27,825 nt of DNA from positions 1 to 27,825 of the forward strand of contig JAZDHP010000012.1 of assembly GCA_043805855.1 (NCBI GenBank), given 5' to 3'. Under the pieces are notes generated by a model. The model saw nothing but the letters and a program-made list of their open reading frames with translations. It did not search any database and had not been told where the DNA came from. Position numbers and translations under genes: made by a program. Below, in pieces: positions 1-27,672 of the stretch; within the stretch, counting starts at the first letter, position 1; each line of letters begins with the position of its first letter. The stretch is from Candidatus Micrarchaeota archaeon. Lineage in GTDB: Archaea; Micrarchaeota; Micrarchaeia; Norongarragalinales; UBA8480.

Positions 1-1518
1 GACTTTATACAAACAATGAAATTCAAACCACTAGAAGTCGAATCTACAAACTACGCTAATGACTTCTCGTGTTCAAACACGCAGCAACTCTGTGGAAAGC
101 TCTCAATCGGCGGAGGCCAATGCGTGAGAAACTGCGGAGACGGATGGTACTACGACGCGCTAGTTGGCACTAAAACTGGAACGCTTTGCGACGGTAAAAC
201 TGACGTAAAGGTACAAGCTACTTATGACGATCATGATCGGTGGGGATACATGGGTGGTGTTCTTTTAAAAACAGCTGAAAATGCAGCATCTTGCGTTACA
301 GCTGAGACTGTTGGAATTGGCGCTGGCTGTAAAGTTGGACGCGCTTGGGGTCCACTTGGAGCTGCAATAGGTTCTGGAGTTGGAGCATTTGTAGCTGGCG
401 CAGCTGCAGATAGAGCCTTTGACGCGGTTAATTCTGATAGTATAAAAGAATCTTTTGCAACTAACATGGGGCAATTGCCTTCATTCATTAAAAATTGGCA
501 AACCATTTGCGGCTACGCTGCAACTGTAGAAAAAGCATATTCAGTTTACCAAACATATCAAGTGTATATGGCTGCTAGTGGCGAGCCTGAATGGAAAATT
601 CAATACCAGCAAGCAGGGTCAAACTGCTTATGTTTATCGCCAGTACCTGGACAAGCGTTTTCAGGCACAAGCGGTTGGGGCAAAGCAGGTGGCTTTAGCA
701 GTTGCGTCTTGAAATCAATGTTCTTAACTGCGTTCTCTTCAACAACACAAACCCAAAGCCTCATGAAAGAAAACATTCAAAGTTATAATGATAAGAAAAA
801 AGCAGCGGAAGATGCTAGTACGCTTGTAAGAAGGAAAGATGCTGAACGTAGTGCGGCAGTAAGTGCTGTTGGCTTTGATTCAGCTCCGGTTGGTAGTCCA
901 GAGCATACTGCTAAAGTGGCCGCGGCAGATGAGGCTATAATTGCATCTCAACATGCTGGCGACTACCTTGCAGAAACTTCTAAAGATGAACAACTAGCTC
1001 GTTCTGAAATGTGTGGAGGCATGAGCTCAATAGATTGCGGTACGTTATTAGAGGGTACTAACGAGAAGCTTGACACGTTAGCTGATGTGGATGCGTGGTT
1101 CGACGCTCTTTGCAGTTATCCGTTCATCGTGCTCGGTGCAAACCAGTTCTTTGGTGGAGCAATCTACCAACCGCCAGCGCGTATGCACCTAGCGGTTTTA
1201 AATTCAGAAGAGAAGAAAGACACGTTCCTAGAAGGAGTTGGCGGCTGGGTGACTGACGACGATAGCAGTGCAGTTGACTGTACGGACAGTTCACTAACGC
1301 CGTCTAGTGGTAAAGACTACACTTGGCAAGACTGGGACATGACCAGCTTAAGGGCGTACCCTGGAGAAACTCGCGAATGTATGGACTACCCCGTTGTAAG
1401 AGCGTACACACCTAACCCTGATGAAATTGGTTTCACTGAAGATGCGGGTGTAATTAAAGACGGTAAAGCCGATAGACTAGTCGCAACCTTCTACATAACC
1501 TCGGAAGACCACGGCTGA
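1..1518 (+). CDS. C-terminal part of a large Cys-rich, glycine-zipper-containing hypothetical protein (probably extracellular/surface); likely 5'-truncated by the window edge
   Basis: Frame is open from base 1 (gac ttt ata caa aca atg), so the ATG at 16 may be internal. Many Cys; GIGAGCKVGRAWGPLGAAIGSGVGAFVAG glycine zipper; Ala-rich helical segment. Confidence 0.6.
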   Translation, partial: DFIQTMKFKPLEVESTNYANDFSCSNTQQLCGKLSIGGGQCVRNCGDGWYYDALVGTKTGTLCDGKTDVKVQATYDDHDRWGYMGGVLLKTAENAASCVTAETVGIGAGCKVGRAWGPLGAAIGSGVGAFVAGAAADRAFDAVNSDSIKESFATNMGQLPSFIKNWQTICGYAATVEKAYSVYQTYQVYMAASGEPEWKIQYQQAGSNCLCLSPVPGQAFSGTSGWGKAGGFSSCVLKSMFLTAFSSTTQTQSLMKENIQSYNDKKKAAEDASTLVRRKDAERSAAVSAVGFDSAPVGSPEHTAKVAAADEAIIASQHAGDYLAETSKDEQLARSEMCGGMSSIDCGTLLEGTNEKLDTLADVDAWFDALCSYPFIVLGANQFFGGAIYQPPARMHLAVLNSEEKKDTFLEGVGGWVTDDDSSAVDCTDSSLTPSSGKDYTWQDWDMTSLRAYPGETRECMDYPVVRAYTPNPDEIGFTEDAGVIKDGKADRLVATFYITSEDHG

Positions 1519-1528
1519 GGTTCCCTTT
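1492..1528 (+). repeat. Junction repeat copy 1 (ORF1 3' end + stop + GGTTCCCTTT)
   Basis: tacataacctcggaagaccacggctgaggttcccttt; 28/37 identical to 2891-2927; 14-nt core ctgaggttcccttt identical to 4432-4445. Confidence 0.75.
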
Positions 1529-1563
1529 CTTTTTTTTAATATTTTTTTAATTTCTTTCTTTTT
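1526..1563 (+). terminator. Oligo-T archaeal terminator-like tract
   Basis: Several T runs directly after the ORF1 stop. Confidence 0.55.
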
Positions 1564-1576
1564 CAACGTTCTTAGC

Positions 1577-1650
1577 AAAAGCTTTAAATAGTTAATGTTA
1601 TCAATGATTAACATTAAAACAGATTTATTGATGATTGCTATGAACATTAA
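1577..1650 (+). promoter_or_regulatory. BRE/TATA promoter followed by paired inverted repeats (candidate operators)
   Basis: aaaagc-tttaaata (TATA 1583-1590); ttaatgtta-N8-taacattaa (1592-1617); degenerate copy ttattgat-N10-aacattaa (1625-1650). Confidence 0.55.
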
Positions 1651-2917
1651 TGTTAAAGCCGCGTTGTTTGATTATAACCCTTTTTGGACGGGTAGTTTTG
1701 AATTTCCTTATAGGGAGAGGACAATTTACTCTACTTTAGCTCCTTTTATAAAAGAAAAGCAAATTGTTTCCCTTTGTGGCTTACGGAGAGTTGGCAAAAC
1801 TACTATTTTAAAAAAAATAATTTCTAATTTAATAAAAGACAACGTTAATCCAACTGACATTTTATATTTTTCTTTTGATGATTTTCCTTCAAGTGAACCG
1901 AGAGAGGTAATTGACGTTTTTAGGGAAATTCACGGAAAAGAACCTAAATTTGTTTTTTTTGATGAAGTACAAAAAGTTAACAATTGGGCTGGAAAGATAA
2001 AGATACTTTATGATGTTAAAGGGTACAAGATTTTCGTTTCTGGTTCTGAATCTTTGTTCCTTCGCAAAGGTGCAGGAGAAAATTTAGCGGGGCGTATATT
2101 TGAATTTGAAGTACGGCAGCTATCCTTTTACGAATACTTGCATTTTATCGAAAAGGGCAGTTGGTTAGCTAATATGAAGTTGTTTGAACGAGAGTTAACC
2201 GCCGCTCTTAATGATTACTTGTTAATTTCGGGGTTTCCAGAGTTAATAGGCAAAAAAGACGAAGTGTTTATCCGTCAATATCTGCGCTCACTACTTGAAA
2301 AAGTAATTTTTTCTGATATGCCTGCGCTTTATTCTATTGATGAGCCGAAAAATCTAGTCAATATGCTAGACGTGTTAATAGATCGTCCCGGGATGCTAGT
2401 TGACTTTGTTTCACTTTCCCAAGAATTGGGTATATCACGTCAAACTCTTTCCAAGTATTTTGAGTTCCTCGAAGCCGCGCATCTTATTATTAAGGTTTAT
2501 AACTATTCGGCCAATAGGTTAACTTCGGAAAAGAAACTGAAAAAGTTTTACCCCGTTTTTTTGAGTTCCGCACTGTCGCATTCTAGTAATGAAAATTATT
2601 TATCAAAAGTAGTGGAGGCTGTTTGTGTTATTAGTAGCGGAGCAAAGTTCTTCTGGCGTGACGTTTATAAAAATGAAGTTGACATTATTCTCTTGCAAAA
2701 CAATAAGATTTTGCCGGTGGAAATTAAGTATAGCTCGCATCCAGAGCCAAAGAGGGGGCTTCAAAGATTTTGCAAAAAATACGCGTGCAAGCGAGCTTTA
2801 GTTGTGACAAAAAACACTAGGAAAACTGAAAAAACTTACGCTGAAGTAAAATGGATTCCTGTTTTTGAATTTCTGCTAAATCCAATGAGTTACATTATCC
2901 CAGAAAATCACAACTGA
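1640..2917 (+). CDS. AAA+ ATPase (AAA_14) with wHTH and DUF4143/PD-(D/E)xK-like C-terminal domain
   Basis: NPFW N-terminal motif, Walker A GLRRVGKTT, Walker B FFDEVQ, SGS, LAGR, GFP, EVDII..PVEIK. Start moved from 1595 to ATG 1640 (1631 also possible) because 1595 is too close to the TATA box. Confidence 0.9.
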   Translation: MNINVKAALFDYNPFWTGSFEFPYRERTIYSTLAPFIKEKQIVSLCGLRRVGKTTILKKIISNLIKDNVNPTDILYFSFDDFPSSEPREVIDVFREIHGKEPKFVFFDEVQKVNNWAGKIKILYDVKGYKIFVSGSESLFLRKGAGENLAGRIFEFEVRQLSFYEYLHFIEKGSWLANMKLFERELTAALNDYLLISGFPELIGKKDEVFIRQYLRSLLEKVIFSDMPALYSIDEPKNLVNMLDVLIDRPGMLVDFVSLSQELGISRQTLSKYFEFLEAAHLIIKVYNYSANRLTSEKKLKKFYPVFLSSALSHSSNENYLSKVVEAVCVISSGAKFFWRDVYKNEVDIILLQNNKILPVEIKYSSHPEPKRGLQRFCKKYACKRALVVTKNTRKTEKTYAEVKWIPVFEFLLNPMSYIIPENHN

Positions 2918-2927
2918 GGTTCTCTTT
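2891..2927 (+). repeat. Junction repeat copy 2
   Basis: tacattatcccagaaaatcacaactgaggttctcttt; encodes YIIPENHN* versus YITSEDHG* at the ORF1 end. Confidence 0.75.
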
Positions 2928-3008
2928 TTGTTTTCTTTCTTTTTTGATTTTTTCTAATTTCTTTTAATCTTTTTTTAATCCGTCTTTTAATTTTTAAGCT
3001 AATTGGTG

Positions 3009-3068
3009 TATTCCAGTTACTGGAATATAAAAGGCTATTTTTGTTCCAGTTACCGGAACGTTTATAAG
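3009..3068 (+). promoter_or_regulatory. Two palindromic operator-like sites plus TATA box
   Basis: tattccagt-t-actggaata (3009-3027, perfect 9-bp arms); gttccagt-t-accggaac (3043-3059, one mismatch); TATA tttataag 3061-3068, 23 nt before ATG 3092. Confidence 0.7.
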
Positions 3069-3091
3069 TGTGTTTCTTTACTTATTTTGAC

Positions 3092-4402
3092 ATGGAAGAT
3101 GAAGATTTAATCAAGGAATTAATAAGCCAAAACCCCTGGTGGAATACTGGCAAAGTAGAGCTTGAAAAAAACGTTGTTCAGCACAGTGTGTTTCCCATTA
3201 TTGAAGGTCAACTTCAAGAAAAACAAGTGCTAGCACTTGTTGGACTAAGGTCAGTTGGCAAAACAACTCTTTTAAGACAATTAATCCAAAAACGCTTAGA
3301 AACTGGAACAAAACCAAGTCATTTATTTTACTTTTCTTTTGACGGTTTCAAAAAACAAAGCGAAGTAATAAGCAAAGCACTAGCTCTTTATTCTAGTTCT
3401 ATTTTAAAACTACCTTTAGCGGAAATTGATTCAACGGTTTACGTGTTTTTGGACGAAGTGCAAAAAATTCCGGATTGGAGCGAAGAAGTAAAACGTTTTT
3501 ACGACAAAAATTTGAAACTCAAATTCATTGTTTCAGGTTCTTCCAGTATGAATATACTTAAGGGAAGTGGTGAAAGTCTAGTTGGGAGAATAATTATTAA
3601 CAAAATTTACCCATTTTCGTTCAGGGAATTTTTAAAGTACAATGGCTTAGAAGTTAAACAGCAAAACCCCTGGAATTTTGAATATCCGTTAAGCGCCGAC
3701 AAAATAAGCATTTTATTCAACCAATATTTGACAAAAGGCGGCTTTCCTGTTTTGTATCCGGTAAAAGAAGACGCACGTAAAGCACTTCTCAAGAGTATGG
3801 TTGACTTAACGTTCTATAGGGACATTGTAAACGTTTTTGACATAAAACGGTCGGACGTTTTAGAGGGGCTTTTTAGCATATTTGTACGTGAATCTGGAAA
3901 TGTTGTCAATTATGCTAATTTATCCGGAGCTTTGCAAGCGAAATTTGAAACAATTAAGCAGTATGTAGACTATCTGGAAGCTTCATTTTTAATTTCAAAA
4001 ACTCGATTTTATTCAAACAGTGTTTCAAAAACCCGGCAAAAAAATGAAAAGCTGTACGTTGCAGACCATGCGTTTAGCATGTTACAAGAAACTAAGTCAG
4101 GGAATTTAGTTGAAACAATTGTGCATAATGCTTTGAGAACTACTGGCTTTGAATTATTTTACTGGCAAAGTGACAAACAACGAGAAGTTGATATAGTTAT
4201 GACTAGCAAAAGTATAGTTCCGATAGAAGTTAAATATCAATCAAAAATTGCAGCAGAAGATTTTAAAAATCTACTTGAATTCATGGACGAATTTTCTGTA
4301 AAAAAAGGCGTGTTGGTAACAAAGAACCTTTTTGAAGTAAAAAAGCAAAAGGGTAAAGAGATTCACTGTGTTCCCGCTTGGTTATTTCTCTTGTCCATTT
4401 AA
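3092..4402 (+). CDS. AAA+ ATPase (AAA_14) with wHTH and DUF4143/PD-(D/E)xK-like C-terminal domain
   Basis: QNPWW, Walker A GLRSVGKTT, Walker B FLDEVQ, SGSS, ESLVGR, GGFP, EVDIV..PIEVK. ATG 3092 preferred over GTG 3068, which overlaps the TATA box. Confidence 0.9.
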   Translation: MEDEDLIKELISQNPWWNTGKVELEKNVVQHSVFPIIEGQLQEKQVLALVGLRSVGKTTLLRQLIQKRLETGTKPSHLFYFSFDGFKKQSEVISKALALYSSSILKLPLAEIDSTVYVFLDEVQKIPDWSEEVKRFYDKNLKLKFIVSGSSSMNILKGSGESLVGRIIINKIYPFSFREFLKYNGLEVKQQNPWNFEYPLSADKISILFNQYLTKGGFPVLYPVKEDARKALLKSMVDLTFYRDIVNVFDIKRSDVLEGLFSIFVRESGNVVNYANLSGALQAKFETIKQYVDYLEASFLISKTRFYSNSVSKTRQKNEKLYVADHAFSMLQETKSGNLVETIVHNALRTTGFELFYWQSDKQREVDIVMTSKSIVPIEVKYQSKIAAEDFKNLLEFMDEFSVKKGVLVTKNLFEVKKQKGKEIHCVPAWLFLLSI

Positions 4403-4417
4403 AAATAAAGAAAATTT

Positions 4418-4445
4418 ACTTCAGAACAGCACTGAGGTTCCCTTT
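4418..4445 (+). repeat. Junction repeat copy 3 (non-coding)
   Basis: acttcagaacagcactgaggttcccttt; reads T-S-E-Q-H-stop, like ORF1 T-S-E-D-H-G-stop; followed by a T tract. Confidence 0.7.
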
Positions 4446-4652
4446 TCTTTCTTTTTGTTTTCTTTTCTCTTTTTTCTTCTTTTTATGCCGGCGTTAGTCT
4501 TCTTTTGAGGGCTAATTTCTTCAACATTCGTTCTATAATGAGGGCGAAAGTATTGTTGATTAGACTCATAAGCATTAGGTTTATGAGTATATTTCTTGAC
4601 TTTAGTAGATAACTGAATCAGATATTCTAGTTAGAGTATAGTTGACCATTTT

Positions 4653-4671
4653 CATTCCAGTAACTGGAATG
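4653..4671. promoter_or_regulatory. Third copy of the TTCCAGT(W)ACTGGAA palindrome, with no adjacent gene start
   Basis: cattccagt-a-actggaatg, perfect 9-bp arms. Confidence 0.6.
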
Positions 4672-4815
4672 TTTATTTTTTTTTTCTAAATATTCATTTT
4701 ATAGGGAAACAATAGTTCATGTTACTTACAATTACCGTTAAATCGATTTCAAGGTCATTGCAATGGCCGTGGATTTAGGTAGTTTGTTTTGAAAATTCGC
4801 GTTTCTTGTTCTTGC

Positions 4816-5493
4816 TTAAAGCAGTTTTCTAAACGCTTCTACGTGTTTAATGTAAGTTTTGTTATCTACGAAGCCGTATACTCCTTCGAGGTTTTTCTTA
4901 AAGTCACTTGAGAGAATGGTAACCGCAGCGCGTTTCAACGCTTTTTCCAAGTTAGTGCGCTTTTCAACTTCTCGCTTTACAAATTCCATATTCTTAACTA
5001 GTGGCAACAGCATAAAGACATCGCGCACGTCGGTTTTACGGCAAGCAACTAACTTCAAAACTACCAACGCGTCAAGGTCTATAATTCTAGTTGTAATTGT
5101 TTCTGGAAATGTTTTACCCTTTAAAGATTTTACAGAAGAATTGTTGAAAATCCATTCGGCTGAAAAACTAGCGTTTGTTCGCCGGTCAAGCACTTCGTCA
5201 ATGAGAATGTCAAAACTAGCGCTGAAGTTTGGCTCAATTTCGTGTTCAAGCCGTTCAAATTTTGAATAATTTCCGCTAGCGTTATTTGCAACTGCAGTAT
5301 ATTGGCGTTTTTTTAATGTGCTTTCTGCTTGCTCAGCAGCTTTCTTTGTCTTTACTACTAAATCGCAGTCAACCGAAAACCTTGGCAGTGTATAGGTGTT
5401 TACTGCGTAGCCGCCGATAACTACAAATTCAATGTTGGTAAGTTCTTTAAGCGCTTCAAAAATCTCCTTCTCACGAATTGAAAAATTGTTCAC
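4816..5493 (-). CDS. Nucleotidyltransferase, AbiEii/DUF6036-like putative type IV TA toxin
   Basis: VVIGGYAV..RFSVDCDL (pol-beta-like GG/DxD), LKLVACRKTDVRD (K..R.KD.D-like motif). Confidence 0.75.
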   Translation of the reverse strand: MNNFSIREKEIFEALKELTNIEFVVIGGYAVNTYTLPRFSVDCDLVVKTKKAAEQAESTLKKRQYTAVANNASGNYSKFERLEHEIEPNFSASFDILIDEVLDRRTNASFSAEWIFNNSSVKSLKGKTFPETITTRIIDLDALVVLKLVACRKTDVRDVFMLLPLVKNMEFVKREVEKRTNLEKALKRAAVTILSSDFKKNLEGVYGFVDNKTYIKHVEAFRKLL

Positions 5494-5494
5494 G

Positions 5495-6091
5495 TTAAAA
5501 ATCTCCTTTGTATTTTTTCTTTATGTACCCAAAAGCGTAGGTGTATAAATAATTTGCACTTGCGGTTTTTACAGTTTCTTTTAATGGTTCAACTTTAAAA
5601 CCGTCTTTTTCAATGAAATTTAACTTAGCTACTGGCTGTAAAATAACGAATTCCCCAATTGTGCTTCCCTTCAATACATAATTTGTAATGCTGGCGGCGT
5701 TCAAGTATCGCTGCCATTTTTTCACGTCGCGCTTCAAAACTTTTATAAAATACGGCGATCGTTCAATGCCACGCTGAACGTAGCTGTAATCGCTCCATAA
5801 TTCCACTGCGCTTAATCCAGTCATTGCATATGACATTGTCGCTTTTTTTAACGCTTCTGGAACTCGAAATTCTAATATACCTTTTACTGCGTTTTCCGGA
5901 GATGTGCATTTGTATTCAGTTTTACTAATTTTTGAAATCCACCCTGAGTTTAATAACAATGCAAAAATTTTCTTGCGCATAGGTTCGGAAACAATCCAGT
6001 CTAATTCACTTTGTTTAAAAGCTTCGCTAATTCCATGACGGCTGAAGAACAACGCATACGCGCGCATGCCAAAAGCAGGCAATTCAATCAT
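5495..6091 (-). CDS. Putative AbiEi-like antitoxin (wHTH + C-terminal domain)
   Basis: N-terminal wHTH-like segment (LLNSGWISKISKTEY), AMTGLSAVELW motif; 1 nt from the downstream NTase gene. Confidence 0.55.
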   Translation of the reverse strand: MIELPAFGMRAYALFFSRHGISEAFKQSELDWIVSEPMRKKIFALLLNSGWISKISKTEYKCTSPENAVKGILEFRVPEALKKATMSYAMTGLSAVELWSDYSYVQRGIERSPYFIKVLKRDVKKWQRYLNAASITNYVLKGSTIGEFVILQPVAKLNFIEKDGFKVEPLKETVKTASANYLYTYAFGYIKKKYKGDF

Positions 6092-6125
6092 AGTTACTTA
6101 ATAGGTAACTGAGCATATTTAATCT
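6092..6125 (-). promoter_or_regulatory. TATA box and inverted repeat directly upstream of the start codon
   Basis: agttac-N7-gtaact (6092-6110); minus-strand ttaaatat about 25 nt upstream of the ATG. Confidence 0.45.
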
Positions 6126-6163
6126 TATTGTTTAGTTTAAGCTATCTGAAGTAAATTAGTTTT

Positions 6164-6925
6164 CTAGGGGAATGAATTGTTTTTGCTCCATTGTATTAAG
6201 GTTTTTTCCACGATTTTAAATTCCGGCAGTTCTGCAAATATGAGCCCGGATAGTTCTTTTTTCCAAGCTTGTTGTTTTTCAGTTATCTTTTTGTTAAATA
6301 GCGTTTGTGAAAATGCTATTTGGTAATATTCTAATTTTTTTGCTACTAATTCTTTTTTAAATTTAACTTGTTGTGAATTTATTAAAAAGTATAAATCGTA
6401 CACGTCGCGTGGTGCGTTACGGGTTAAAATTGCGCGGGTTTTTTCGGCAGCAATTTCGTCCAAGGTCATGCCGTTAATTATTTTCACAGGTAAGACGTAT
6501 GCATCTGCTTCGAGTTTGAGTGCAAGTGGCTTTTCAATAACTTGTTCTCGTTTGCTTATTTCAACATAAACGTGACATAAATCTTTTATAGATGTATTCA
6601 AGGGGCCTCGTGCGCTTATTCGAAAAGATAGAGAAACGTCACTGTTACATATTGGTTTAACTGTGTTTTCAACGCCAAATAATTTCAAGTTTTCAGAAAC
6701 ACGTTTTGCGAGGTCATCTTCTATAGGGCTAAGCATAGTGAAATCGAGATCTTCGGAAAAACGCGGCAAGTTGTAGTAAAACCAAAGGTAAGTGCCGCCT
6801 TTAAAAACAAGCGGGTAATCAGCTAGCGTTTCAAGTATTAAATTTTGCAAGTAGTGTTTTTCCTGTTGCCAAATGCGTAAGTTATTCAATTTAGCGATTT
6901 GTCCTAGTTTATCTTTGTCAATCAT
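6164..6925 (-). CDS. abiEii: AbiEii/AbiGii-family nucleotidyltransferase toxin (type IV TA)
   Basis: EKHYLQ, LVFKGGTYL, RFSEDLDF, AEKTRAILTRNAPRDVYDL are canonical AbiEii motifs. Confidence 0.92.
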   Translation of the reverse strand: MIDKDKLGQIAKLNNLRIWQQEKHYLQNLILETLADYPLVFKGGTYLWFYYNLPRFSEDLDFTMLSPIEDDLAKRVSENLKLFGVENTVKPICNSDVSLSFRISARGPLNTSIKDLCHVYVEISKREQVIEKPLALKLEADAYVLPVKIINGMTLDEIAAEKTRAILTRNAPRDVYDLYFLINSQQVKFKKELVAKKLEYYQIAFSQTLFNKKITEKQQAWKKELSGLIFAELPEFKIVEKTLIQWSKNNSFP

Positions 6926-7497
6926 AACAAGTACCTCTCAAGTTTTTTCTTTCCCTTGCCTTTAAATCGTTTCAAAAAATCGGTAACTTTTTTTAGGTCT
7001 ATCTTTTCGAGAATTTCCAAAGCATTGGGTTTATTCAGTGCATTTAGATAAATGGCGTCTATTAAAGCTTTTTCAGGCTCTGCTACTAAAATGTAGCTAT
7101 TTCCCTTTTTGTGTTTTTCATAACCGAAAAATAGTGAAGGGGGAATTTTGTGATATGTTATTCCTAACTTCGGAAAGCGGAAACTGTTTTTAGTTGTAAT
7201 GCACTCTACTTGTGTTGGAATTTGTTGAATAAGGCCGTGGAACAACAATGCGGAATTCAATGAAATATAACTTGGTTCAACCATTTGTGTTGCAATAATG
7301 TAGTCGTCGTCAGTAAAGGATATTCTACCGCGTAGCAATCTTTTTGCTAGCTTTTTTTTAACTAGACGACTAAAATATACTTTTGTGATCCTTTTTGGTT
7401 TTCCAATTAGATTAGCGAGTTGTTGAATAGAGTAGATCTCTCGTCCACTTTTCATGGCTTTGTCTCGAATTTCGTACAAATTAAGTTGTTTTGTCAT
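6922..7497 (-). CDS. abiEi: AbiEi-family antitoxin / transcriptional regulator
   Basis: N-terminal HTH; PSYISLNSALLFHGLIQQIP; AEPEKALIDAIY; ATGA overlap with abiEii. Confidence 0.88.
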   Translation of the reverse strand: MTKQLNLYEIRDKAMKSGREIYSIQQLANLIGKPKRITKVYFSRLVKKKLAKRLLRGRISFTDDDYIIATQMVEPSYISLNSALLFHGLIQQIPTQVECITTKNSFRFPKLGITYHKIPPSLFFGYEKHKKGNSYILVAEPEKALIDAIYLNALNKPNALEILEKIDLKKVTDFLKRFKGKGKKKLERYLL

Positions 7498-7501
7498 GTC
7501 C

Positions 7502-7540
7502 AGGTAACAATATGGTTACTTCCCAGTGATTTAAAAGGTT
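7502..7540 (-). promoter_or_regulatory. Imperfect palindrome and TATA box upstream of abiEi
   Basis: aggtaacaat/atggttactt (7502-7521, 8/10 paired); minus-strand cttttaaat around 7529-7537. Confidence 0.45.
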
Positions 7541-7577
7541 TTTGGCGCTTGTTGTTTTTGTTGTTTGTTTGGTTTTA

Positions 7578-7722
7578 TAGCAGAACGCGAAAGTCTTTCG
7601 GACTTCAGCATTTTGCCCTTAGCAAAATGTCTGAGTCACAAAGCGAAGCTTTGTGCTCATTTGCGCTTTCTGCTAGATAGCAAAAGGCCGAAAAGTCCCA
7701 AAAGACTTTTCGGTTTTGCTAT
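7578..7722. repeat. Structured cloverleaf element copy A plus adjacent hairpin (REP/MITE-like element or ncRNA)
   Basis: Outer stem tagcagaa/ttctgcta enclosing aagtc/gactt, cattttgc/gcaaaatg and cacaaagc/gctttgtg; second hairpin atagcaaaa..ccgaaaagtc/gacttttcgg..ttttgctat (7677-7722); homologous to 13573-13655. Confidence 0.7.
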
Positions 7723-7878
7723 AATGTCGTTTGTTATCATTTTTGATAATAAAGTGAGTAGTTTGTCTCTTTGTCTAATTTTTTCAGCGGTTTAAATTTT
7801 ATTTAGCGGTTAGTTTAAACTAATTAACGCATTTAACGAAATGCCACAATCTTTAAATAATGGTGATTTCTTACATTT

Positions 7879-8127
7879 ATGGTGAATTTAGTGGAAGTTG
7901 GAGTTTACGAGAAGAGTCTTGACAACCAAGGTAGGTTTGTCGTTCCAGTTGCACTTCGTTCAACGTTGAAAGAGTTTCTAATGCTAGTTTACAAAGACCA
8001 CGTGAAACTCGTGCCAAAAAAGCACGTTAAGTTAACTGATTTGTTTGACTCTGTTGAAGTTCCGAATCTTCCAGCTGACTATAAACAACTAAAACGCGAA
8101 TTAATGCGCAAATATGAGGTTGAGTGA
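7879..8127 (+). CDS. vapB: AbrB/MazE/SpoVT-family antitoxin (VapB)
   Basis: KSLDNQGRFVVPVALR swapped-hairpin motif; GTGA overlap with the PIN gene; TATA ctttaaata 7851-7859. Confidence 0.75.
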   Translation: MVNLVEVGVYEKSLDNQGRFVVPVALRSTLKEFLMLVYKDHVKLVPKKHVKLTDLFDSVEVPNLPADYKQLKRELMRKYEVE

Positions 8128-8552
8128 GACACTTGCGATTTGTAGATTCTAATATATTGATATATGCGTTGCTTAAATCGCAGCGGGAACTTACCTCTGA
8201 AGTGCGCGCGATAAAAAGTTCAGCTCAAAACATACTTGCCCGAGTTGAAAAAGGTGAAAAGGTGATAACTAGCGTGGTTCATTTATCTGAATTTGTCAAC
8301 GTGCTTGAACGTCATATTTCAGCTAGACAACAGCGAGCTACTTTAGAGTCTATATTGTCAAATAAAAATATTGAAATTGTATCTGTAACTAGAGAAAGTT
8401 ATGATTTGGCTATTGAATTAGCTCGAAATAGTGAATTAGGTATAAATGACGCTCTTGCTGTAGTGATAATGCAACAAAGAGAGGTTAGTGAGATTTACTC
8501 TTTTGACAAAGATTATGATTTAGTTTCAGGCGTAATTCGACTTACTAAATAA
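8124..8552 (+). CDS. vapC: PIN-domain VapC toxin
   Basis: FVDSNILIY, HLSEF, INDALAV, IYSFDKDYD acidic PIN motifs. Confidence 0.9.
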   Translation: MRHLRFVDSNILIYALLKSQRELTSEVRAIKSSAQNILARVEKGEKVITSVVHLSEFVNVLERHISARQQRATLESILSNKNIEIVSVTRESYDLAIELARNSELGINDALAVVIMQQREVSEIYSFDKDYDLVSGVIRLTK

Positions 8553-8606
8553 GTAACTATTTCACTATGTTTAAATGCCTTACTTGCGTTACTTTTAGGT
8601 ATACAC

Positions 8607-11600
8607 ATGTTTGGGCGTAATAAACCTGAAAAGCAAAGTGGGTTGGGAGACAAGTTTAAAGAGCTAGAGGAAGCCAAGCCAACTCAAGTTGAAAAAGTTG
8701 ACACTGGTTTTGGCAAAAAGGATTACTATTTACAAGAGCAAGAGCAAGTTGAACTTGGCAAAAGCGGGTTATACAACAAAGGCGGCAAAGGCAAGATAAA
8801 ATTCGAACTGCCAAAAATAAATCCCCTGCTAATTGCGGGAATTTTGTTAGTTATTATTGGCGTTGCTGGCTTTCTATTTTTTTACAAGCCAACGCAAGTT
8901 GTTGCAGGTGGTTTTGAAATTGTCGTATTTGCAGGAGAAGCGAAGTTACCAAATGCAGTTGTAACTGTTTACGATGGCGAAATCGCTATTGCTAACGCAA
9001 CTACTGATTCCAGCGGCCGCGTGTCTTTCTCTGGGCTTCCGAATAAAATATTGAAATTTGAAGTTTCTACAAGCAGTGGCAAAGTGAACAAATCAATTAA
9101 CACAAGAGGAAGAAAAGCTTATTCTTTCAACGTCGGCGGTGCAGGGATAATTGCAGTTGACGAGTTGGTTTTTTCAATTTTACAAGAGGGAACTCGCGAG
9201 CCAATTGAAGGAGTTAAAATTTCTTATTCTCTTGGAAGTGAAGTAGCGCGTCGTTTTGTTGACAGTGCAAGCGACGGCAAAGCAGTTATTCCATTGGAAG
9301 GGGAAAGTATTGTTCGTTTACGTATTGTTGACCCACAGCGTCGCTTCCAGCCAGAAAGTTTTTCAATCCTGGCAAGTAAAGCGCCGAGGGAGATTTTACT
9401 AAAACCTCTTGAACGCAGTGCCACGCAGGCGAATGTTGAACCGCTAACCACTAGTGTAATTGTCAAGCCTCGTTTTGAAAGTGCAGTTGTTCCAAATGCA
9501 ATTGTAACCGCGAGTTACGTTTTTACTGGCGGTGAAATTAATTCAGTTGCAGCAACTAATGGTGAAGCGCGTTTTGAAAACTTATCAATAAACTCTCTTA
9601 TTTCATTTACAGTTCAAGCTCCTAGTTTTTATCCAAAGTCTAACCAAGTGCAATTAACAAAAGAAATGCAGCCAATTGTAATTTCTTTGAATAAAATTCC
9701 TCCAGAGGCGCCAAGGACAAAAATAGTTGCCAATGTTGGCAGTGGCGAAGTTTACATTTTCCAAAAAGGCAATTTGACTAAACTTGTTTCAACAGTTTTA
9801 GTAAATGGTTCAGCTCAATTTGTGCTTGAAGAAGGAGCGTACTACGCGTTGGTAATTGCGCAGGGTTACTTGCCGTTTACGACAAGTGAGTTTACAAATG
9901 GTGAACAAGTTAATGTTGAACTATTGCAATCAAGTGAAGAAAATTCAGTTAACTTAGAAGTTAACGTAACTGACGAGGACGGTGCGTCTCTCTCAGGCGC
10001 AAGTGCAGTTGTTTTAAACGCAGATGGTTTACTAGCGAGCTTACCAATTGAAACTCAACTTGACGCGCCGGTTACTTTTGTACTGCCGGTTAATTTACAA
10101 GCCGAAGCACGTGCTGTTTTTGAAGGCATTGAAGCTTCGCAAGTGGTTGATTTATTTCAAGACGCGTCAGTTCAGTTACAGCTAAGTACAAAAGCAGCGT
10201 TTCTTGACTTACAAGTTCGCAGCTTAAAGGACAATTCGTTAGTAAGTGTAACGTTAACGAGTTTTTACAACGGTGCAGCTTACAATTCCTGCAGTGGTAA
10301 TGGTGGTTGTACTGTTCGTGTTAAAGGTAATGAAGACATTGCAGTTCAAGTTGAAGGAGCTGGTTACTTGCCTTACACTTTTTACAGCGAGTCAATTCCT
10401 GAACGAACTGCGAAAAGCGACGTTGTGCACGTTGTGCCGTCAAGTTTAGCAAATGCTGTTGATGTTAAGTTACTTGAAGTTAAAAACAGCGAGAGCAATG
10501 TTGTTACTGGAAATGTTTTACGTCCAGGTAAGTACAACGCGCGTTTTTTTGTATCTGGAATTAATGCAGAGCAACTTTCACTTTATGTTCGCATTGGCGA
10601 TGGAAAGCAAAACTCTTCTTTATCTGCAGTGCATTTACTTGAGCCACTTTCTGTAAATGATGTAGATGTAGCAAAGTCAAAAGTTTACCTTGGCGAAAAG
10701 CCACAGTGTGAAGATTTGCTAGATCCAGCAATGGAACCGCCGTACAAGTGGGTTGAGTTAACTTTCTTTAACACTTCAACGCAAGAAGTTGACATTCCAT
10801 TTGAAATTCCGCAAAACATTCGTGGAAATTCAACATTTACACTTGAATACCGAGGTAAAATAGTTGCAGGCAATGCAGTTAGCCGCTTTCCGCAAGATTC
10901 AGTTCTTGGTTTTGAACCAGCTTCTCTAACGCGCGCAAATTGCTATGCTGAAACAACTGGCCAACGTTTTACAATTTCCGAAAGCCAAGCGCCGTCAATT
11001 GAAAGCGTGCTTCCGCTAGTTGAAGGTCAGTTTACAAGCAGCGACGGTATTGTTTTTGATCCAGTGCAAGGCAAGATAAAATCGCAAAATGGTTTAACTG
11101 CGTTTGAATTGCAAGTTGACTCAATTTTACCCGGAGACGCCATGCCTTTAGCGTTGCAATCCGACGACCAGTGTTCAATTTTAGTAAAACAGCCAAACAC
11201 TACGTCTAATGATCCAACTGCGTCTTGCTATCGTTATGATTCAGCAAAGTCAATGCTGGTGTTTGAAACTAAAGAGTTGAACTCCATTTGTCCAATTTAC
11301 TTGAAAAACGATAAGTTCTATTCAAAAAATGGAGCAAGGGTTCTACGCAGCAACGCGACGTTATCTATATTGGCAACTTGCTCTCCTGAAGCAAAAATGG
11401 AAATGCCAATAACTGTCAAATTTGTTTCTGACGTTGTTTCTCTTACAGTGAAGCCAGAGTCAGATCAACTTGGTGAAGGCGACGCGGCGAAGTTACTTTA
11501 TGTTATAAACAACCGCCAGCTACAGCGCCGTAACATAGAAGCAACATTCCAGTCAACTAAAAACTACCAGTTGTCTGGCGTAAGTGCAAAAGCAATAGCT

Positions 11601-13397
11601 TGGCGCGGGCCGGGCGATTTGGAGTTCAGCGAAAACGGGGATTTAATTGAACAGATTACCTTCGAAGGTACGCCTAACAATTTCTTGAAAACTGGAATTG
11701 GCATTTTAAGCCACCGTCAAACTACTTGCGGTGCAAGCGACGTTTACTGCTGTGCAAATGGCTGGTGTACGCGTAAAGCGCTTGAAGAGTTTATTCCCTC
11801 GTTTAAAGAAATCGCGTTGAAAACTGCAAAGGCAACTGCATTTCGTCGCGGTAGCGGCCAACCATTGGCTTACTTTTCGTCAACTCCGTTTAAATTCGTA
11901 ACAGTTGTACAAGCAGCTCAAGGCAGCCAAACGGCGCTCACTGTACAGGGAACGACTTTTTCACAGCCAGTAACTTGCCTACCTGGAAACCCGGGCGTTT
12001 ATGAGTTAACTGCTTCTTCGCTTGACAATGGCGACGATTCATGGAACTACTCTGCGCGTGCACTTGAATTGAAAAGCGGCGATTACATTCAAGCGCCTTC
12101 AGGTTGCGGCGGGGGCTCAAATGTAACTCAATTTAGCGCGACGGCGCCAAACGGTGAAGTAACGTTGTGCAACTTCTTGCAGCCGAAGAACAATTGCATT
12201 GAGTCAACTAAAAACGCGTCGATTGTTTCAATTGACCAAGTTGAAACACTAACGTTTGAATTTACTAACTGCATGTATCCAGTTTTCCCGGGTGCGCCTG
12301 TATGTCCTGGGATAAAAATGGTGCTTCCTGCTGTTAACATTGGTAACTTAGAGTCAGAAGCTGAGTTTAACCCTGCGGACGCTCCGAACGCGTTTGAAAA
12401 AATCTGGGAGGGGTTCAGCGATAGAAGTAATTCAAACTTTTCGATATTTTCTTGGAGCGGGCAACTCAAATGCATTGTGCCGCCTTCAGTGCAGCAGTTT
12501 GCAATTACAGCAGCAGCTTCTGGGATTAATTTAATGCCAGGCGCAGCTGACGAGGAAGCTAAAACGAGAACCGCAGCGCCAGTAACCGCAGACGTGTGCA
12601 AACAATCGGACTTCTTTAACCTTGGAGTGATACCTAACATGGATACACTCATTCCGCTTGCGGGAGTATGCTGTCCAGAGGGGATAACCGCCCAAATTTG
12701 TACTCCAAAGCGCGGTAAATTCTTCGTTAGCTCTCGTGATAACAAAGTGAAAATAATAACCCAATGGGGTTTAACCGAAGGTTGCTACCCGTACTGGCCG
12801 TTCCCAACAACAATTAAGGGTTTAATGCAAAGCCAAAACTTGGTAAGCGCGGCGTTTGGACTTGGCGAGTTCATCACTTCCAACGGCGCGAATTTTGAAA
12901 TGTCCCTATCTTCAGAAACGCCAGGCGAAAAGCCAGTTGCCGCAGCTGGTCTGTCAAGCAAAGCATGCCGCGGTGATGGCGAATGTGCAGCTTACGAGCA
13001 ATGTGCGGTTAACTCGATTTATTCCTATAAGGGAAGCGGTGCAGGTGGAAGCGGTAAATGCGTTGGTGCTAGCTCGACTCCGGGAGTTTGTACATATTCA
13101 AACGTAAAAGAAAAAGAGAAGTGCACTGGTGGCATGCAATGTGAAACCAGCGGCGACAAAACTGCAACTTGCAAAGAATGCGGAAATGCAAACGAAGCGT
13201 CATGCTGTGTAAGCGACACCAACGCCTACTGCAAAGGACATTTAGGTTGTTTCCAAACTGGAACGGTTTTCAAGTGCACTTCTAATTGTGGTGACGAAGA
13301 GCAACCGCCATGTGCGGATACAATGTGCAATTCAGGCTTGCGTCCAACTTCTCCAACATTTACTGGCGACACAGGCAGTTCAAAATGCGTTAAGTAA
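8607..13397 (+). CDS. Giant single-pass membrane surface protein with carboxypeptidase-regulatory/PEGA-like beta-sandwich repeats and a Cys-rich C-terminus
   Basis: Charged ~70-aa N-terminus, TM helix LLIAGILLVIIGVAGFLFFY, repeats such as LPNAVVTV..TTDSSGRVSF, PIEGVKI..SDGKAVI and SLSGASAV; dense Cys motifs at the C-terminus. Confidence 0.75.
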   Translation: MFGRNKPEKQSGLGDKFKELEEAKPTQVEKVDTGFGKKDYYLQEQEQVELGKSGLYNKGGKGKIKFELPKINPLLIAGILLVIIGVAGFLFFYKPTQVVAGGFEIVVFAGEAKLPNAVVTVYDGEIAIANATTDSSGRVSFSGLPNKILKFEVSTSSGKVNKSINTRGRKAYSFNVGGAGIIAVDELVFSILQEGTREPIEGVKISYSLGSEVARRFVDSASDGKAVIPLEGESIVRLRIVDPQRRFQPESFSILASKAPREILLKPLERSATQANVEPLTTSVIVKPRFESAVVPNAIVTASYVFTGGEINSVAATNGEARFENLSINSLISFTVQAPSFYPKSNQVQLTKEMQPIVISLNKIPPEAPRTKIVANVGSGEVYIFQKGNLTKLVSTVLVNGSAQFVLEEGAYYALVIAQGYLPFTTSEFTNGEQVNVELLQSSEENSVNLEVNVTDEDGASLSGASAVVLNADGLLASLPIETQLDAPVTFVLPVNLQAEARAVFEGIEASQVVDLFQDASVQLQLSTKAAFLDLQVRSLKDNSLVSVTLTSFYNGAAYNSCSGNGGCTVRVKGNEDIAVQVEGAGYLPYTFYSESIPERTAKSDVVHVVPSSLANAVDVKLLEVKNSESNVVTGNVLRPGKYNARFFVSGINAEQLSLYVRIGDGKQNSSLSAVHLLEPLSVNDVDVAKSKVYLGEKPQCEDLLDPAMEPPYKWVELTFFNTSTQEVDIPFEIPQNIRGNSTFTLEYRGKIVAGNAVSRFPQDSVLGFEPASLTRANCYAETTGQRFTISESQAPSIESVLPLVEGQFTSSDGIVFDPVQGKIKSQNGLTAFELQVDSILPGDAMPLALQSDDQCSILVKQPNTTSNDPTASCYRYDSAKSMLVFETKELNSICPIYLKNDKFYSKNGARVLRSNATLSILATCSPEAKMEMPITVKFVSDVVSLTVKPESDQLGEGDAAKLLYVINNRQLQRRNIEATFQSTKNYQLSGVSAKAIAWRGPGDLEFSENGDLIEQITFEGTPNNFLKTGIGILSHRQTTCGASDVYCCANGWCTRKALEEFIPSFKEIALKTAKATAFRRGSGQPLAYFSSTPFKFVTVVQAAQGSQTALTVQGTTFSQPVTCLPGNPGVYELTASSLDNGDDSWNYSARALELKSGDYIQAPSGCGGGSNVTQFSATAPNGEVTLCNFLQPKNNCIESTKNASIVSIDQVETLTFEFTNCMYPVFPGAPVCPGIKMVLPAVNIGNLESEAEFNPADAPNAFEKIWEGFSDRSNSNFSIFSWSGQLKCIVPPSVQQFAITAAASGINLMPGAADEEAKTRTAAPVTADVCKQSDFFNLGVIPNMDTLIPLAGVCCPEGITAQICTPKRGKFFVSSRDNKVKIITQWGLTEGCYPYWPFPTTIKGLMQSQNLVSAAFGLGEFITSNGANFEMSLSSETPGEKPVAAAGLSSKACRGDGECAAYEQCAVNSIYSYKGSGAGGSGKCVGASSTPGVCTYSNVKEKEKCTGGMQCETSGDKTATCKECGNANEASCCVSDTNAYCKGHLGCFQTGTVFKCTSNCGDEEQPPCADTMCNSGLRPTSPTFTGDTGSSKCVK

Positions 13398-13660: not shown

Positions 13661-14719
13661 CTAGTACTTTATAGCGTCTAGGTTGTAGGTTGGCATTGCT
13701 GGTTTGGCGGCTACTTCGTGGCCAACAAGTTGGTCACTTTGGATGCCAGTGAGCACAGCAGTGACGACGATTTTGTCGCCCATTTCTGGAACTAAACGCG
13801 CTCCCCATTTCACGTATGCGTTTGAGTCAAACGATGAAGTTATACCTTCTCCAATTTTAACAGCTTCGCCTAGTGTTAAGTTCGAGCCACCTTGAATTAA
13901 GATGAGCCCTCCCTTTGCTCCAGCGTAGTCTACGTCAAGCAGCGGGTGTTCAAGCGTTGATTTAATAACGTCGTCAACCTTGTCGTTGCCCTTGCCTTCG
14001 CCAATGGAAATCATTGAAACTCCACCGCCTGACATGATCATCCTCAAGTCTGCGAAGTCAATGTTCATCAAGCTAGGCAGCATGATTGTGTCTGCAATGC
14101 CTTTAACTGCCCGAGCAACTAGCGTGTCTGCAACTGCAAAAGCTTGGTTCATTGGAAGATTCGGTACATAAGATACAAGGCGGTTGTTGTCGATAATTAC
14201 AACTGTGTCGCATACCTTTGTTAGTTCTTCAATTCCCCAGTCTGCTTTTGACAAACGCGCGCGTTCAAGAACAAACGGGAAAGATACAATTGCGATTGTA
14301 ATTGCTCCAGTTTTCTTTGCAATATCTGCAATAACTGGTGCTGCGCCTGTACCAGTTCCGCCTCCCATACCTGCGGTTATGAAAACTAGTTCATTATCTC
14401 CAAGTAGTTCAGCGAGTTTCTCGCGAGAGCTTTCAGCTGCTTTCATTCCAATTTCGGGAAAGCCGCCAGCGCCCATACCCTTAGTAAGGTTAGCTCCTAT
14501 AAGCACTTTTTTGTCAGCGTCAATTAGTTTCAAGTGGTTCGCGTCAGTGTTTATCGCAATGGTTCTTGCACTTTCCAAGCCCATTGATTTTAACCTGTGC
14601 ACGGTGTTTGTTCCAGCGCCTCCAACTCCAACAACGCTAATGCGAATGTCAGACGGTGCTAGGCTCTTTACTGTTTTTGGCGTCGAGTTTCTCATCGCGT
14701 CAGCAATTAATCCATCCAT
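13661..14719 (-). CDS. ftsZ: Cell division GTPase FtsZ (FtsZ2-like), second copy
   Basis: [22 protein letters not shown] signature, IDNNRL, NIDFAD T7 loop. Confidence 0.96.
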   Translation of the reverse strand: MDGLIADAMRNSTPKTVKSLAPSDIRISVVGVGGAGTNTVHRLKSMGLESARTIAINTDANHLKLIDADKKVLIGANLTKGMGAGGFPEIGMKAAESSREKLAELLGDNELVFITAGMGGGTGTGAAPVIADIAKKTGAITIAIVSFPFVLERARLSKADWGIEELTKVCDTVVIIDNNRLVSYVPNLPMNQAFAVADTLVARAVKGIADTIMLPSLMNIDFADLRMIMSGGGVSMISIGEGKGNDKVDDVIKSTLEHPLLDVDYAGAKGGLILIQGGSNLTLGEAVKIGEGITSSFDSNAYVKWGARLVPEMGDKIVVTAVLTGIQSDQLVGHEVAAKPAMPTYNLDAIKY

Positions 14720-14770
14720 TTTATTTTTGATACCTCTTTTTCTCCGTTTTTTCCCTACCCTCCTTGTGTT

Positions 14771-14904: not shown

Positions 14905-14969
14905 TTTTTTTCCTTATATTAAAAAAAATGGAAAAAATCAAAAAATAAAAAAATATAAAATTTTGAACT

Positions 14970-16570: not shown

Positions 16571-16635
16571 AAGTTTCTGTTTGTCCACTTTTTTTGTAGT
16601 TTTTGTTTTAAACTTAAAATTCATTGCTAGTGTAT

Positions 16636-26409: not shown

Positions 26410-27672
26410 GTGACGAAAAACAACCTTGTTGACGCGTACGATGCACGTGCGGAACTAATGGTGCAGCGCATGCTTGAGAACAAAATGGGCGCTGACGACG
26501 CGAATGTTGACAAGCGAAACAAGTATGCGCTTGACTTCAAGTTTACTACTGGCCAAATAAAAGTTGTTTCTGAATTTGACCGCTTTAAAACACTAAAAGG
26601 CGTAAAGCCATGGACTCGCTATTCTTACGTTGTTTGGTGTCGCCAATTTCTAGCTTTTGTGAAGAAACCTTTTGAAAAAGTTACGGGGCGAGACCTTGAA
26701 GATTATTTTCTTTCACTGCAGGGCAAAAGTCCTGTTACGCAGTTTAGGCACAGAACTTACGCTAAGTTTTTCTTTACTTGGTTCTATGAAACTTACCTTC
26801 AACAGCCTTTGCCCGACTGGGTGAGAAAAATTCCGCGCAATAAGCCAAATACAAAACGTTCGCCACAGGAACTACTGACAAAAGAAGAACTTGAGAAGCT
26901 CTATGCAGTTGCAAGGCATCCCATGCATCAAACTATGATTCGTTTACTTGCTGAATCTGGCTTGCGCCGTAAAGAGCTAATTAGCTTGCGCATCGGCGAT
27001 GTTAGTTTTGAGGGTCCGCTAACTACTATTTGGGCTAATGGTAAAACGGGGGAAGGGGCTGTTTTTCTTTACGATGCAACGCCGTACTTAATGAGCTGGC
27101 TTAGGGTGCATCCTGCTCGGAACGACAAAGAGGCGCCAGTATTCTACGTTATTGATAAAGTAACGAAAAAACCAAAGCCGCTTGGCTTAACAACACCAAA
27201 TAGAATCATCAAAGTGTTGGCTGAACGCGCGGGAATTGAAGATAAGCGAATTTATGGTCATCTCTTTCGGTTTACTGCAGCTACTAACGACGCTGTTTCA
27301 ATGACTGATGCTATGATGCGGTTGAAGTATCGTTGGAGTAGCTATTCGCAAATGCCAGCGCACTACGCTTCGTTGCATAATGGTGCGTTGAAAGAGCAGG
27401 TTATGCGACATCATGGAATACTTAAGCCAGAAGAGCAAAAAGCAAAGCCAATTGAGTGTCCAAGTTGTCATTTTGTGAACTTACCAGGCGAACGTTTCTG
27501 TACTAATTGCTATCGGGGCATTACTTTGGAAGCAGTTCAAGAAGTTGACGACCGCCGGAAAGCTTTGGAGTTAATTCAGGTAATGGCTTACAAGCGAAAG
27601 AAAAGCGTTTCCCTTGATGATGTTGTTGACTTAATTCATGAAATTGAAACGGCCAAACCGCCCAAAAAATAA
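26410..27672 (+). CDS. Tyrosine recombinase/integrase with C-terminal zinc ribbon
   Basis: SGLRRKE (R), GKTG (K), HLFR (HxxR), YRW, HYA (Tyr nucleophile); CPSC..CTNC. Confidence 0.9.
   Translation: MTKNNLVDAYDARAELMVQRMLENKMGADDANVDKRNKYALDFKFTTGQIKVVSEFDRFKTLKGVKPWTRYSYVVWCRQFLAFVKKPFEKVTGRDLEDYFLSLQGKSPVTQFRHRTYAKFFFTWFYETYLQQPLPDWVRKIPRNKPNTKRSPQELLTKEELEKLYAVARHPMHQTMIRLLAESGLRRKELISLRIGDVSFEGPLTTIWANGKTGEGAVFLYDATPYLMSWLRVHPARNDKEAPVFYVIDKVTKKPKPLGLTTPNRIIKVLAERAGIEDKRIYGHLFRFTAATNDAVSMTDAMMRLKYRWSSYSQMPAHYASLHNGALKEQVMRHHGILKPEEQKAKPIECPSCHFVNLPGERFCTNCYRGITLEAVQEVDDRRKALELIQVMAYKRKKSVSLDDVVDLIHEIETAKPPKK

Follow-up and report, generated by a model that had tools for sequence, protein, structure and literature searches.

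The window analysed here, a stretch of 27,825 nt, comprises positions 1-27825 of contig C12 (JAZDHP010000012.1) from a Candidatus Micrarchaeota archaeon, the genome of which (G000 below) amounts to 1.03 Mb in 67 contigs, with 41% G+C and a completeness of 92%. Near the left end of the window, two genes of the PDC-S01 type, each encoding an ATPase with AAA_14 and DUF4143 domains, follow the 3' end of a large open reading frame (ORF), termed ORF1, and copies of this gene end are present before, between and behind them. We propose that two unrelated PDC-S01 cassettes were probably inserted at the ORF1 end, one after the other, and that the three repeats are the target duplications which resulted. 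This reading is carried by the repeats and their uniqueness in the genome, by a family-wide footprint of repeats around related genes, by orthologous intervals that are free of ATPase genes at two loci, and by the boundaries of the cassettes. An earlier note on this DNA had likewise suggested that single-gene cassettes were added one after the other at the ORF1 3' end, with the end copied each time, and this part of its proposal is supported by the present analysis.

The spread of single defence genes without a recombinase of their own is poorly understood, and the genome gives a compact natural data set on it: six cassettes that belong to one family and have an apparent target duplication each, two loci that can be compared with ATPase-free relatives, and the ORF1 locus, where two cassettes are stacked on three copies of one gene end. 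These data supply substrates for asking whether insertion is the work of the ATPase-nuclease or of host replication and repair, and whether a duplicated target can be reused as a landing pad.

Three copies of the ORF1 end around two ATPase genes

The motif CTGAGGTTCYCTTT was located by a scan of the window at 1515, 2914 and 4432, the three sites named in the earlier note, in each case as an exact match on the plus strand. Together with one match on the other strand, which has two mismatches, the window thus holds four matches vs 0.40 expected, and four were reached in 1 of 100 shuffles used as a chance control. When the whole genome was scanned on both strands with at most one mismatch, three forward and no reverse matches were obtained, all of them at the ORF1 locus, and the reversed-pattern control gave none. 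The 10-nt core GGTTCYCTTT also has a genome total of three occurrences, and in a dispersed-repeat test the ORF1-end repeat was not dispersed in the genome (three copies, one locus). No exact match was found in 67 other genomes of the order, three of which were matched by the reversed control. The motif is real, far above chance and strictly local; with only three matches in the genome, all at one locus, it is therefore not a genome-wide terminator signal found at unrelated gene ends, a possibility that the earlier note had raised. The layout of the locus and of the other features discussed is given in Table 1.

Table 1. Features of the window, with positions counted from its first nucleotide
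Feature	Position	Strand	Description
ORF1, 3' part, cut by the contig start	1..1518	+	large protein; TFYITS C-terminus kept in relatives
Target copy 1	1492..1563	+	last 27 nt of ORF1 including the stop, then pyrimidine-rich tract; ungapped repeat 1492-1528
Cassette 1 (~1.33 kb)	1564..2890	+	TATA-like box 1582-1590; palindrome 1592-1617; ATPase 1 ORF
ATPase 1 ORF	1595-2917 (as listed)	+	likely true start, as inferred, at ATG 1631 or 1640
Target copy 2	2891..2977	+	last 8 codons and stop of ATPase 1; ungapped repeat 2891-2927
Cassette 2 (~1.44 kb)	2978..4417	+	operator-like palindromes 3010-3026 and 3043-3059; TATA-like box 3061-3067
ATPase 2	3092-4402	+	own stop codon, outside copy 3
Target copy 3	4418..4485	+	non-coding; core 4432-4445
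Rest of variable island	4816..8552		minus strand: two unnamed genes, AbiEii/AbiEi pair; plus strand: 82-aa gene, PIN gene
1596-aa protein	8607..13397	+	conserved right-hand island anchor in same-genus relatives
Tyrosine recombinase ('resident integrase')	26410..27672	+	22 kb from the array; XerA-like, below the curated cut-off

Copy 1 (1492-1528) encodes the ORF1 terminus ...FYITSEDHG* and copy 2 (2891-2927) the terminus of ATPase 1, ...SYIIPENHN*. Both agree with the translations in the earlier note (YITSEDHG* and YIIPENHN*). Copy 3 (4418-4445), which the note had translated as TSEQH*, is non-coding. It begins 16 nt past the stop of ATPase 2 and has a 3-nt deletion in its left part relative to copy 1. 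Copies 1 and 2 are equal at 28 of 37 positions, and eight of the nine differences are transitions, a hand count on the read sequence that agrees with the earlier one. Copies 1 and 3 have the same 14-nt core, again as noted before, from which copy 2 differs by one C>T. With gaps allowed, the repeat extends into the pyrimidine-rich tract, where 1492-1563 aligns with 2891-2974 (score 47, shuffle maximum 27) and 2913-2977 with 4431-4485 (score 45, shuffle maximum 34). The flanking repeats at this locus are accordingly longer than 30 bp, at 37 nt ungapped and at 72-84 and 55-65 nt gapped, and their extension into the tract suggests a duplicated unit of ~70-85 nt, made up of the last 27 nt of ORF1 and the tract downstream.

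The ORF1 protein, which the earlier note took to be a surface protein, had no Pfam family match in a domain search. Homologs are present in five of the 11 other genomes of the family, namely G001, G002 and G003, which belong to the same genus, G005, from another genus, and G009. The C-termini of the homologs read TFYI(T/S)S followed by three residues (TFYITSRGK*, TFYITSRNQ*, TFYISSKIQ*, TFYISSKLS*), and because of this shared ending copy 1 is the native 3' end of ORF1, from which copies 2 and 3 are derived as duplicates.

It was also considered whether the repeat is a selected RNA 3'-end element (hairpin plus U tract) that ends or stabilises three transcripts. A T-rich tract lies behind each of the three copies, folding energies of -10.4 and -10.8 kcal/mol were obtained for copies 1 and 3, respectively, and four of the five left-arm differences are transitions that preserve pairing with a fixed right arm, CTGAGGT (by reading). 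Against this, 20 of 200 and 16 of 200 shuffles of copies 1 and 3 fold equally well (z -1.45 and -1.51), copy 2 does not fold (-4.3 kcal/mol, z +0.84), the motif is missing from all other gene ends of the genome, and a search of positions 1300-5000 against Rfam at E<=1 returned no match. An RNA element of this kind is therefore regarded as highly improbable.

Each interval between the copies contains exactly one ORF, and the domain search bore out the earlier statement that both are AAA_14-DUF4143 genes. For ATPase 1, the E-values were 1.5e-31 (AAA_14) and 4.9e-15 (DUF4143), with a full-length match to PADLOC PDC-S01 at 2.4e-63; for ATPase 2, they were 8.2e-34, 3.4e-26 and, again over the full length, 4.6e-71. 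When the six complete paralogs in G000 are aligned, Walker A, Walker B and D...ExK motifs are seen to be preserved, with G62, K68, D123, E124, E361 and D363 invariant. With both Pfam cut-offs passed, the PADLOC match at full length and the motifs kept, the two proteins are members of PDC-S01 / AAA_14-DUF4143 (COG1373). DUF4143 is tabulated as a PD-(D/E)XK family of unknown function in PMC3424549. From these motifs, nuclease activity is predicted for both ATPases. An antiviral defence role of the cassettes follows a database label, and they may be seen as candidates for it.

Homology of ATPase 1 to ATPase 2 stops at residue 429, and that to the other paralogs at ...FEFLLN; the last eight codons and the stop of ATPase 1 therefore come from copy 2. 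The right end of the cassette is the end of its ORF, so that ATPase 1 borrows its stop from the duplicated target, as the earlier note had held. One TATA-like box precedes each ATPase gene and each cassette has its own palindromes (by inspection); these are putative promoters and operators, and the regions that contain them are mutually unrelated in cassettes 1 and 2. The two ATPases share 29% identity (123/430; 28.6%), and ATPase 1 is closer to the paralog on contig C51, with 39.6% identity. For these two reasons, ATPases 1 and 2 are separate single-gene cassettes and not recent tandem duplicates, in agreement with the view of the earlier note that the two genes are too diverged for a plain tandem duplication. 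An old tandem duplication of the ORF1 end plus ATPase, followed by divergence of the genes while selection or gene conversion kept the junctions, would account for the same layout and similar length of the two units, the core starts of which are 1399 and 1518 nt apart. At such a low protein identity, however, neutral junctions would be unrecognisable, and neither the closer C51 paralog nor the unrelated promoter/operator regions fit this history, to which we give very little credence.

The cassette-2 palindrome ATTCCAGTTACTGGAAT recurs at 4654-4670, 250 nt past ATPase 2, where its third copy (16/17) is followed by a TTTAT box. No decayed third ATPase was detected in 4446-4830, including the part behind this palindrome (best blastx match at E 0.99). 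The palindrome may have remained from the promoter of a cassette that was lost, or it may serve as an additional binding site.

Direct repeats at other ATPase loci

To survey the flanks of the ATPase genes, 700 nt upstream of each gene were aligned to 700 nt downstream, with shuffles as control. All six complete AAA_14-DUF4143 (PDC-S01) genes in the genome are bracketed by direct repeats, which range from 34 to ~360 nt and score 45-170 vs shuffle maxima of 27-37. At the ORF1 locus (C12a and C12b, scores 47 and 45), the duplicated sequence is the ORF1 3' end with its downstream tract. At the other loci it is the last 34 nt of a 66-aa gene, read as rpoN-like (C8, 34/34 nt), the first 36 nt of a divergent neighbour gene (C47, 34/36 nt), an internal part of a flanking ORF (C10, 97 nt at ~80% identity) and a part of paralogous flanking genes (C51, ~360 nt at ~70% identity). 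The repeat sequences differ between these five loci. As a genome-wide control, every ORF of 300-600 aa that had sufficient flanking sequence (229 in all, six ATPases and 223 others) was treated in the same way, and a score of at least 45 was reached by 10 of them, the six ATPases and four of the 223 others. These four are two tandem paralogs on C54, an HTH protein on C22 and a gene on C31. The last-mentioned gene (C31:29826-31211; L174:701-2086, minus strand), with SLFN_AlbA_2, HATPase_c_4 and HTH domains, has direct repeats of ~80 nt with a score of 113, and insertion with a long duplication is therefore not confined to DUF4143 genes in G000.

In nine of the 10 repeat-flanked loci measured, the insert is 1272-1524 nt long (C10 has 1944 nt), and terminal inverted repeats were found in none of the 10 (best scores 15-23). 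The left repeat ends 44-300 nt upstream of the ATG, and the right repeat mostly starts in a range from 45 nt before to 94 nt after the stop. The stop codon of the ATPase lies within the duplicated target at C8, C47, C12a and a further locus, L083. Where copies that are 86-90% alike occur in different metagenome contexts, the limits of their homology, which are independent of the repeats, lie 151-169 nt ahead of the ATG and directly behind the first T of the stop. For example, L100:2832-4321 and L104:1849-3338, both from metagenomes, are 89.6% alike in different contexts, and the stop is TAG in one and TGA in the other. Together, these data define a mobile unit, made up of a ~70-170 nt putative promoter region and the ORF, with its end at the stop codon. 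In six of the 15 repeat-positive loci (which comprise, e.g., C8, C47, L062, L066, L083 and L051), the distance from the outer edge of the duplication to the start or stop codon of a neighbouring gene is 0-3 nt, a placement that selection for intact neighbours alone does not predict.

As the repeats are unrelated between loci and the recombinases of the genome are distant from them, the repeats behave as locus-specific target duplications and not as a recognised site. The earlier note had favoured a dedicated att site, at which the resident integrase would add cassettes in an integron-like manner, and this part of its proposal was not supported. In its favour, the three junctions share a core that is 13-14/14 identical, copies 1 and 3 can form a hairpin of 7-8 bp, and the window does contain a tyrosine recombinase gene. 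PF00589 has two matches in the genome, this gene and one on C32, both far from the cassettes. The recombinase of the window scores 89 bits for XerA against a cut-off of 220, and 47.6 for integron integrase against 265. The remaining four complete paralogs have repeats that are unrelated in sequence and length, and their contigs are free of tyrosine recombinase genes. The hairpins are not better than those of shuffled sequences, and the motif has no further occurrence in the genome and none in the other genomes of the order that were searched. Use of an att site by either recombinase is thus considered improbable. No integrase or transposase gene was found in or beside the insert, DDE_Tnp_1, TnpB-type and serine resolvase families were without a match in the 92%-complete genome, and a tRNA scan of the window found no tRNA gene.

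The array can also be compared with three known kinds of elements. In tandem accretion, including that of integrase-less cis-mobilizable elements (CIMEs), elements are lined up at the 3' end of a gene or tRNA, and each junction has a copy of the gene end. The ORF1 array is similar in that several elements stand in a row, with a gene-end copy per junction and an intact gene; it differs in that no integrase is found in or beside it, the elements are single genes of ~1.4 kb, and the junction sequence is not common to family members at other loci. Integron arrays consist of single-gene units in one orientation behind a fixed point, which end near the ends of their ORFs and are served by a common Pc promoter. 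The stacking of single-gene units in the same direction behind a fixed point, with ends close to the ORF ends, is shared with the ORF1 array, which in contrast has no adjacent integrase, no attC-like structured site and no common Pc logic, each cassette being equipped with a TATA-like box and palindromes of its own (by inspection). IS1634 of Mycoplasma leaves long direct repeats of variable length upon insertion, as seen here, and has a DDE transposase and inverted ends, whereas the cassettes are without terminal inverted repeats and the genome without matches to the transposase and resolvase families mentioned above.

Outside this genome, repeats were found at five of the 18 ATPase loci sampled from the rest of the family, where they include a whole tRNA gene (105/107 identity) and other gene ends. 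They were found at five of 22 loci in a sample of the phylum and at nine of 50 loci, eight of them distinct, on metagenome contigs found with ATPase 2, many of the 50 being copies of one locus. The phylum and metagenome tests carried reverse-complement controls, which were positive at 0/22 and 0/50 loci, respectively. The copy number of the ATPase is patchy in the family, with 0 to 13 matches per genome among 12 genomes and none in G002 at 91% completeness, and in the phylum as a whole 114 of 301 genomes have matches (the tally includes the unpublished genome G241). Another genome, G084, has two tandem ATPase genes (L089, G084:C27:1-6000; 151-1467 and 1649-2983, minus strand) that are 52% identical overall. 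Their last 75 coding nt and ~40 nt downstream are nearly identical (~115 nt), as if the second ATPase had landed in the 3' end of the first.

Orthologous loci and the proposed course of insertion

At two loci, the duplicated sequence could be followed in relatives without the ATPase. The 34-nt sequence of C8, which stands on both sides of a 1370-nt insert in G000, is single-copy in G001, G002 and G003, where it is joined directly to the body of the rpoN-like gene and no ATPase is present. The 36-nt sequence of C47 stands on both sides of a 1420-nt insert in G000 and was aligned once each in G001 and G002, the two genomes checked for copy number; in G002, it directly follows the stop of the preceding gene. 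No ATPase is found between the C47 flanking genes in G001, G002 or G003. The native junction at C47 is an ATGA stop/start overlap.

At the ORF1 locus, the same-genus relatives have one ORF1 end and no ATPase, and their ORF1 is only 33-37% identical, which gives no base-level alignment of the site. The region from ORF1 to the gene for the 1596-aa protein is a variable island, the left breakpoint of which is the ORF1 stop in all genomes compared. Synteny breakpoints away from the repeats, which the earlier note had named as a refuting outcome, were not observed; the gene content of the relatives diverges right after this stop. The island has no gene in ~112 nt (partly masked) in G003, a VapBC-like pair in G001, and a 109-aa gene, two PIN genes and an AbiE-like pair in G002, and in G000 it contains the two ATPases, two unnamed genes, the AbiEii/AbiEi pair, and the 82-aa gene with the PIN gene. 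In G005, an unrelated ATPase (25.6% identity to ATPase 2) stands behind the ORF1 homolog, and past this ATPase a further ORF1 3' end is found. With this case, the ORF1 end was used three times, twice in G000 and once in G005. When metagenome contigs were searched with the ORF1 protein, 108 pattern matches were obtained and none was confirmed.

Just past the stop of the ORF1 homolog in G002 (L016, G002:C24), two AGTTTCC...GGAAACT palindromes were observed. They are followed by a T-rich tract, an ATPase gene is not present there, and they may be what is left of the operator of a vanished cassette.

In the course of events that we consider probable, a single-gene cassette, consisting of a promoter/operator region and a PDC-S01 ORF, would insert at the ORF1 end and duplicate its target, i.e., the last 27 nt of ORF1 with the pyrimidine-rich tract. 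A second, different cassette would then insert at the same target and leave three copies. The mode would be a recombinase-free 'insertion with long target duplication', which the replication or repair machinery of the host may carry out by template switching or through staggered breaks. By analogy with C8, C47 and the other loci, both insertions at ORF1 would be events of the same kind, one preceding the other. As to their order, copies 2 and 3 share two bases vs copy 1, but the core is equal in copies 1 and 3, and these are too few sites to decide.

Insertion of restriction-modification (R-M) units with long target duplication is said to have been described by Nobusato et al. (2000, Gene 259:99). 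Furuta, Abe and Kobayashi (2010, NAR 38:2428; PMC2853133) characterize this mode by repeats that exceed 30 bp and vary in length, by the lack of a mobility gene and by an empty site with one copy only. In that paper, the mode is reported for R-M types I-IV, no archaeal case survived the screen, and 'the transposon of Mycoplasma' is mentioned in the discussion. The cassettes described here are alike in being small defence-type units without a mobility gene, flanked by direct repeats that are longer than 30 bp, variable and genome-unique, in having a single-copy repeat in relatives at the two loci checked (C8 and C47), and in that the repeats often span the end of a neighbouring gene or a whole tRNA gene. 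They differ in their cargo, which is one PDC-S01 gene and not a pair of R and M genes, in their host, which has a small archaeal genome, and in the right end of the cassette, which is the end of the ORF. Moreover, two different cassettes here share three target copies, and the word 'tandem' does not appear in the main text of PMC2853133. The array is filed as a variant of the long-target-duplication mode and not as a member of the R-M set, because its cargo is one AAA_14-DUF4143 gene and not an R-M unit.

Several observations weigh against two serial target duplications at ORF1. Copies 1 and 2 are so diverged that their identity at the time of insertion is not demonstrable, and the left 23 nt have diverged more than the 14-nt core, which would not be expected of a neutral duplicate. 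Two insertions at one target would need either a target preference or homologous re-integration. The C8 and C47 intervals of the relatives vary in other genes as well and are not exact pre-insertion sites; at C8, a 122-aa gene beside the G000 insert is missing from G002, and G003 has other genes. A close strain or read set with no or one cassette at the ORF1 locus was not found. Repeats were not detected at 13 of 18 family, 17 of 22 phylum and 41 of 50 metagenome loci, one of the five family positives (L031) has its repeats well away from the gene (667 nt upstream, 408 nt downstream), and the two metagenome contexts of an ATPase 2-like cassette, L100 and L104, have no flanking repeats. Finally, the displaced ORF1 fragment in G005 is nearer to the ORF1 of G009 (40/53 aa) than to the adjacent G005 ORF1 end (30/51). 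For this fragment, a duplication in situ is a poorer explanation than the import of a gene end along with the cassette or the deletion of a tandem paralog.

In an alternative of the Campbell type, a cassette loops out between its repeats as a circle with one target copy and, after transfer, recombines with any resident copy, each copy of the ORF1 end being a landing pad for homologous recombination by the host, by which arrays would grow. Such re-integration would naturally yield the order target-cassette 1-target-cassette 2-target and account for the second use of the same site. The G005 fragment looks as if the gene end had travelled along, the near-identical 115 nt of the G084 tandem pair also agree with it, and the discussion of PMC2853133 proposes that units invade, are amplified by way of their repeats and are released in a cycle. 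On the other hand, the copies, at 76% identity over 37 nt, are now a poor substrate for homologous recombination, and the first insertion at each new locus needs another mechanism. No circle or excision junction was seen in low-coverage reads; the one sequencing run found contained 8% of the sampled words and, on positions 1-9000, gave short low-depth contigs and two weak joints (sides of 22-23 nt). Altogether, we consider re-integration of circles unlikely as the origin of the array, though less so than the use of an att site; it may have served in the second event.

A similarly doubtful extension of the proposed target duplication is that PDC-S01 genes are autonomous single-gene mobile elements, in which an AAA+ motor, a DNA-binding part that reads the palindromes of its own cassette and a PD-(D/E)XK nuclease would act together. 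Each insertion would then regenerate the landing site, and arrays could grow like those of integrons without a recombinase. The literature searched under DUF4143 and COG1373, as far as its text was accessible, contained no link of either to mobility.

Rest of the island and of the window

Among the other modules of the island (4400-8700), the only direct repeats found were three pairs of 18-20 nt at chance level. Several short inverted repeats lie between AbiEi and the 82-aa/PIN genes (7560-7740), around 7570-7600 and 7690-7720. Beyond the 1596-aa gene, a 118-aa ORF at 16624-16980 has a weak match to a ParE toxin (E 8e-4, below cut-off) and is toxin-antitoxin-like, and two FtsZ-family genes, of 352 and 356 aa, are arranged in tandem on the minus strand at 13661-16040.

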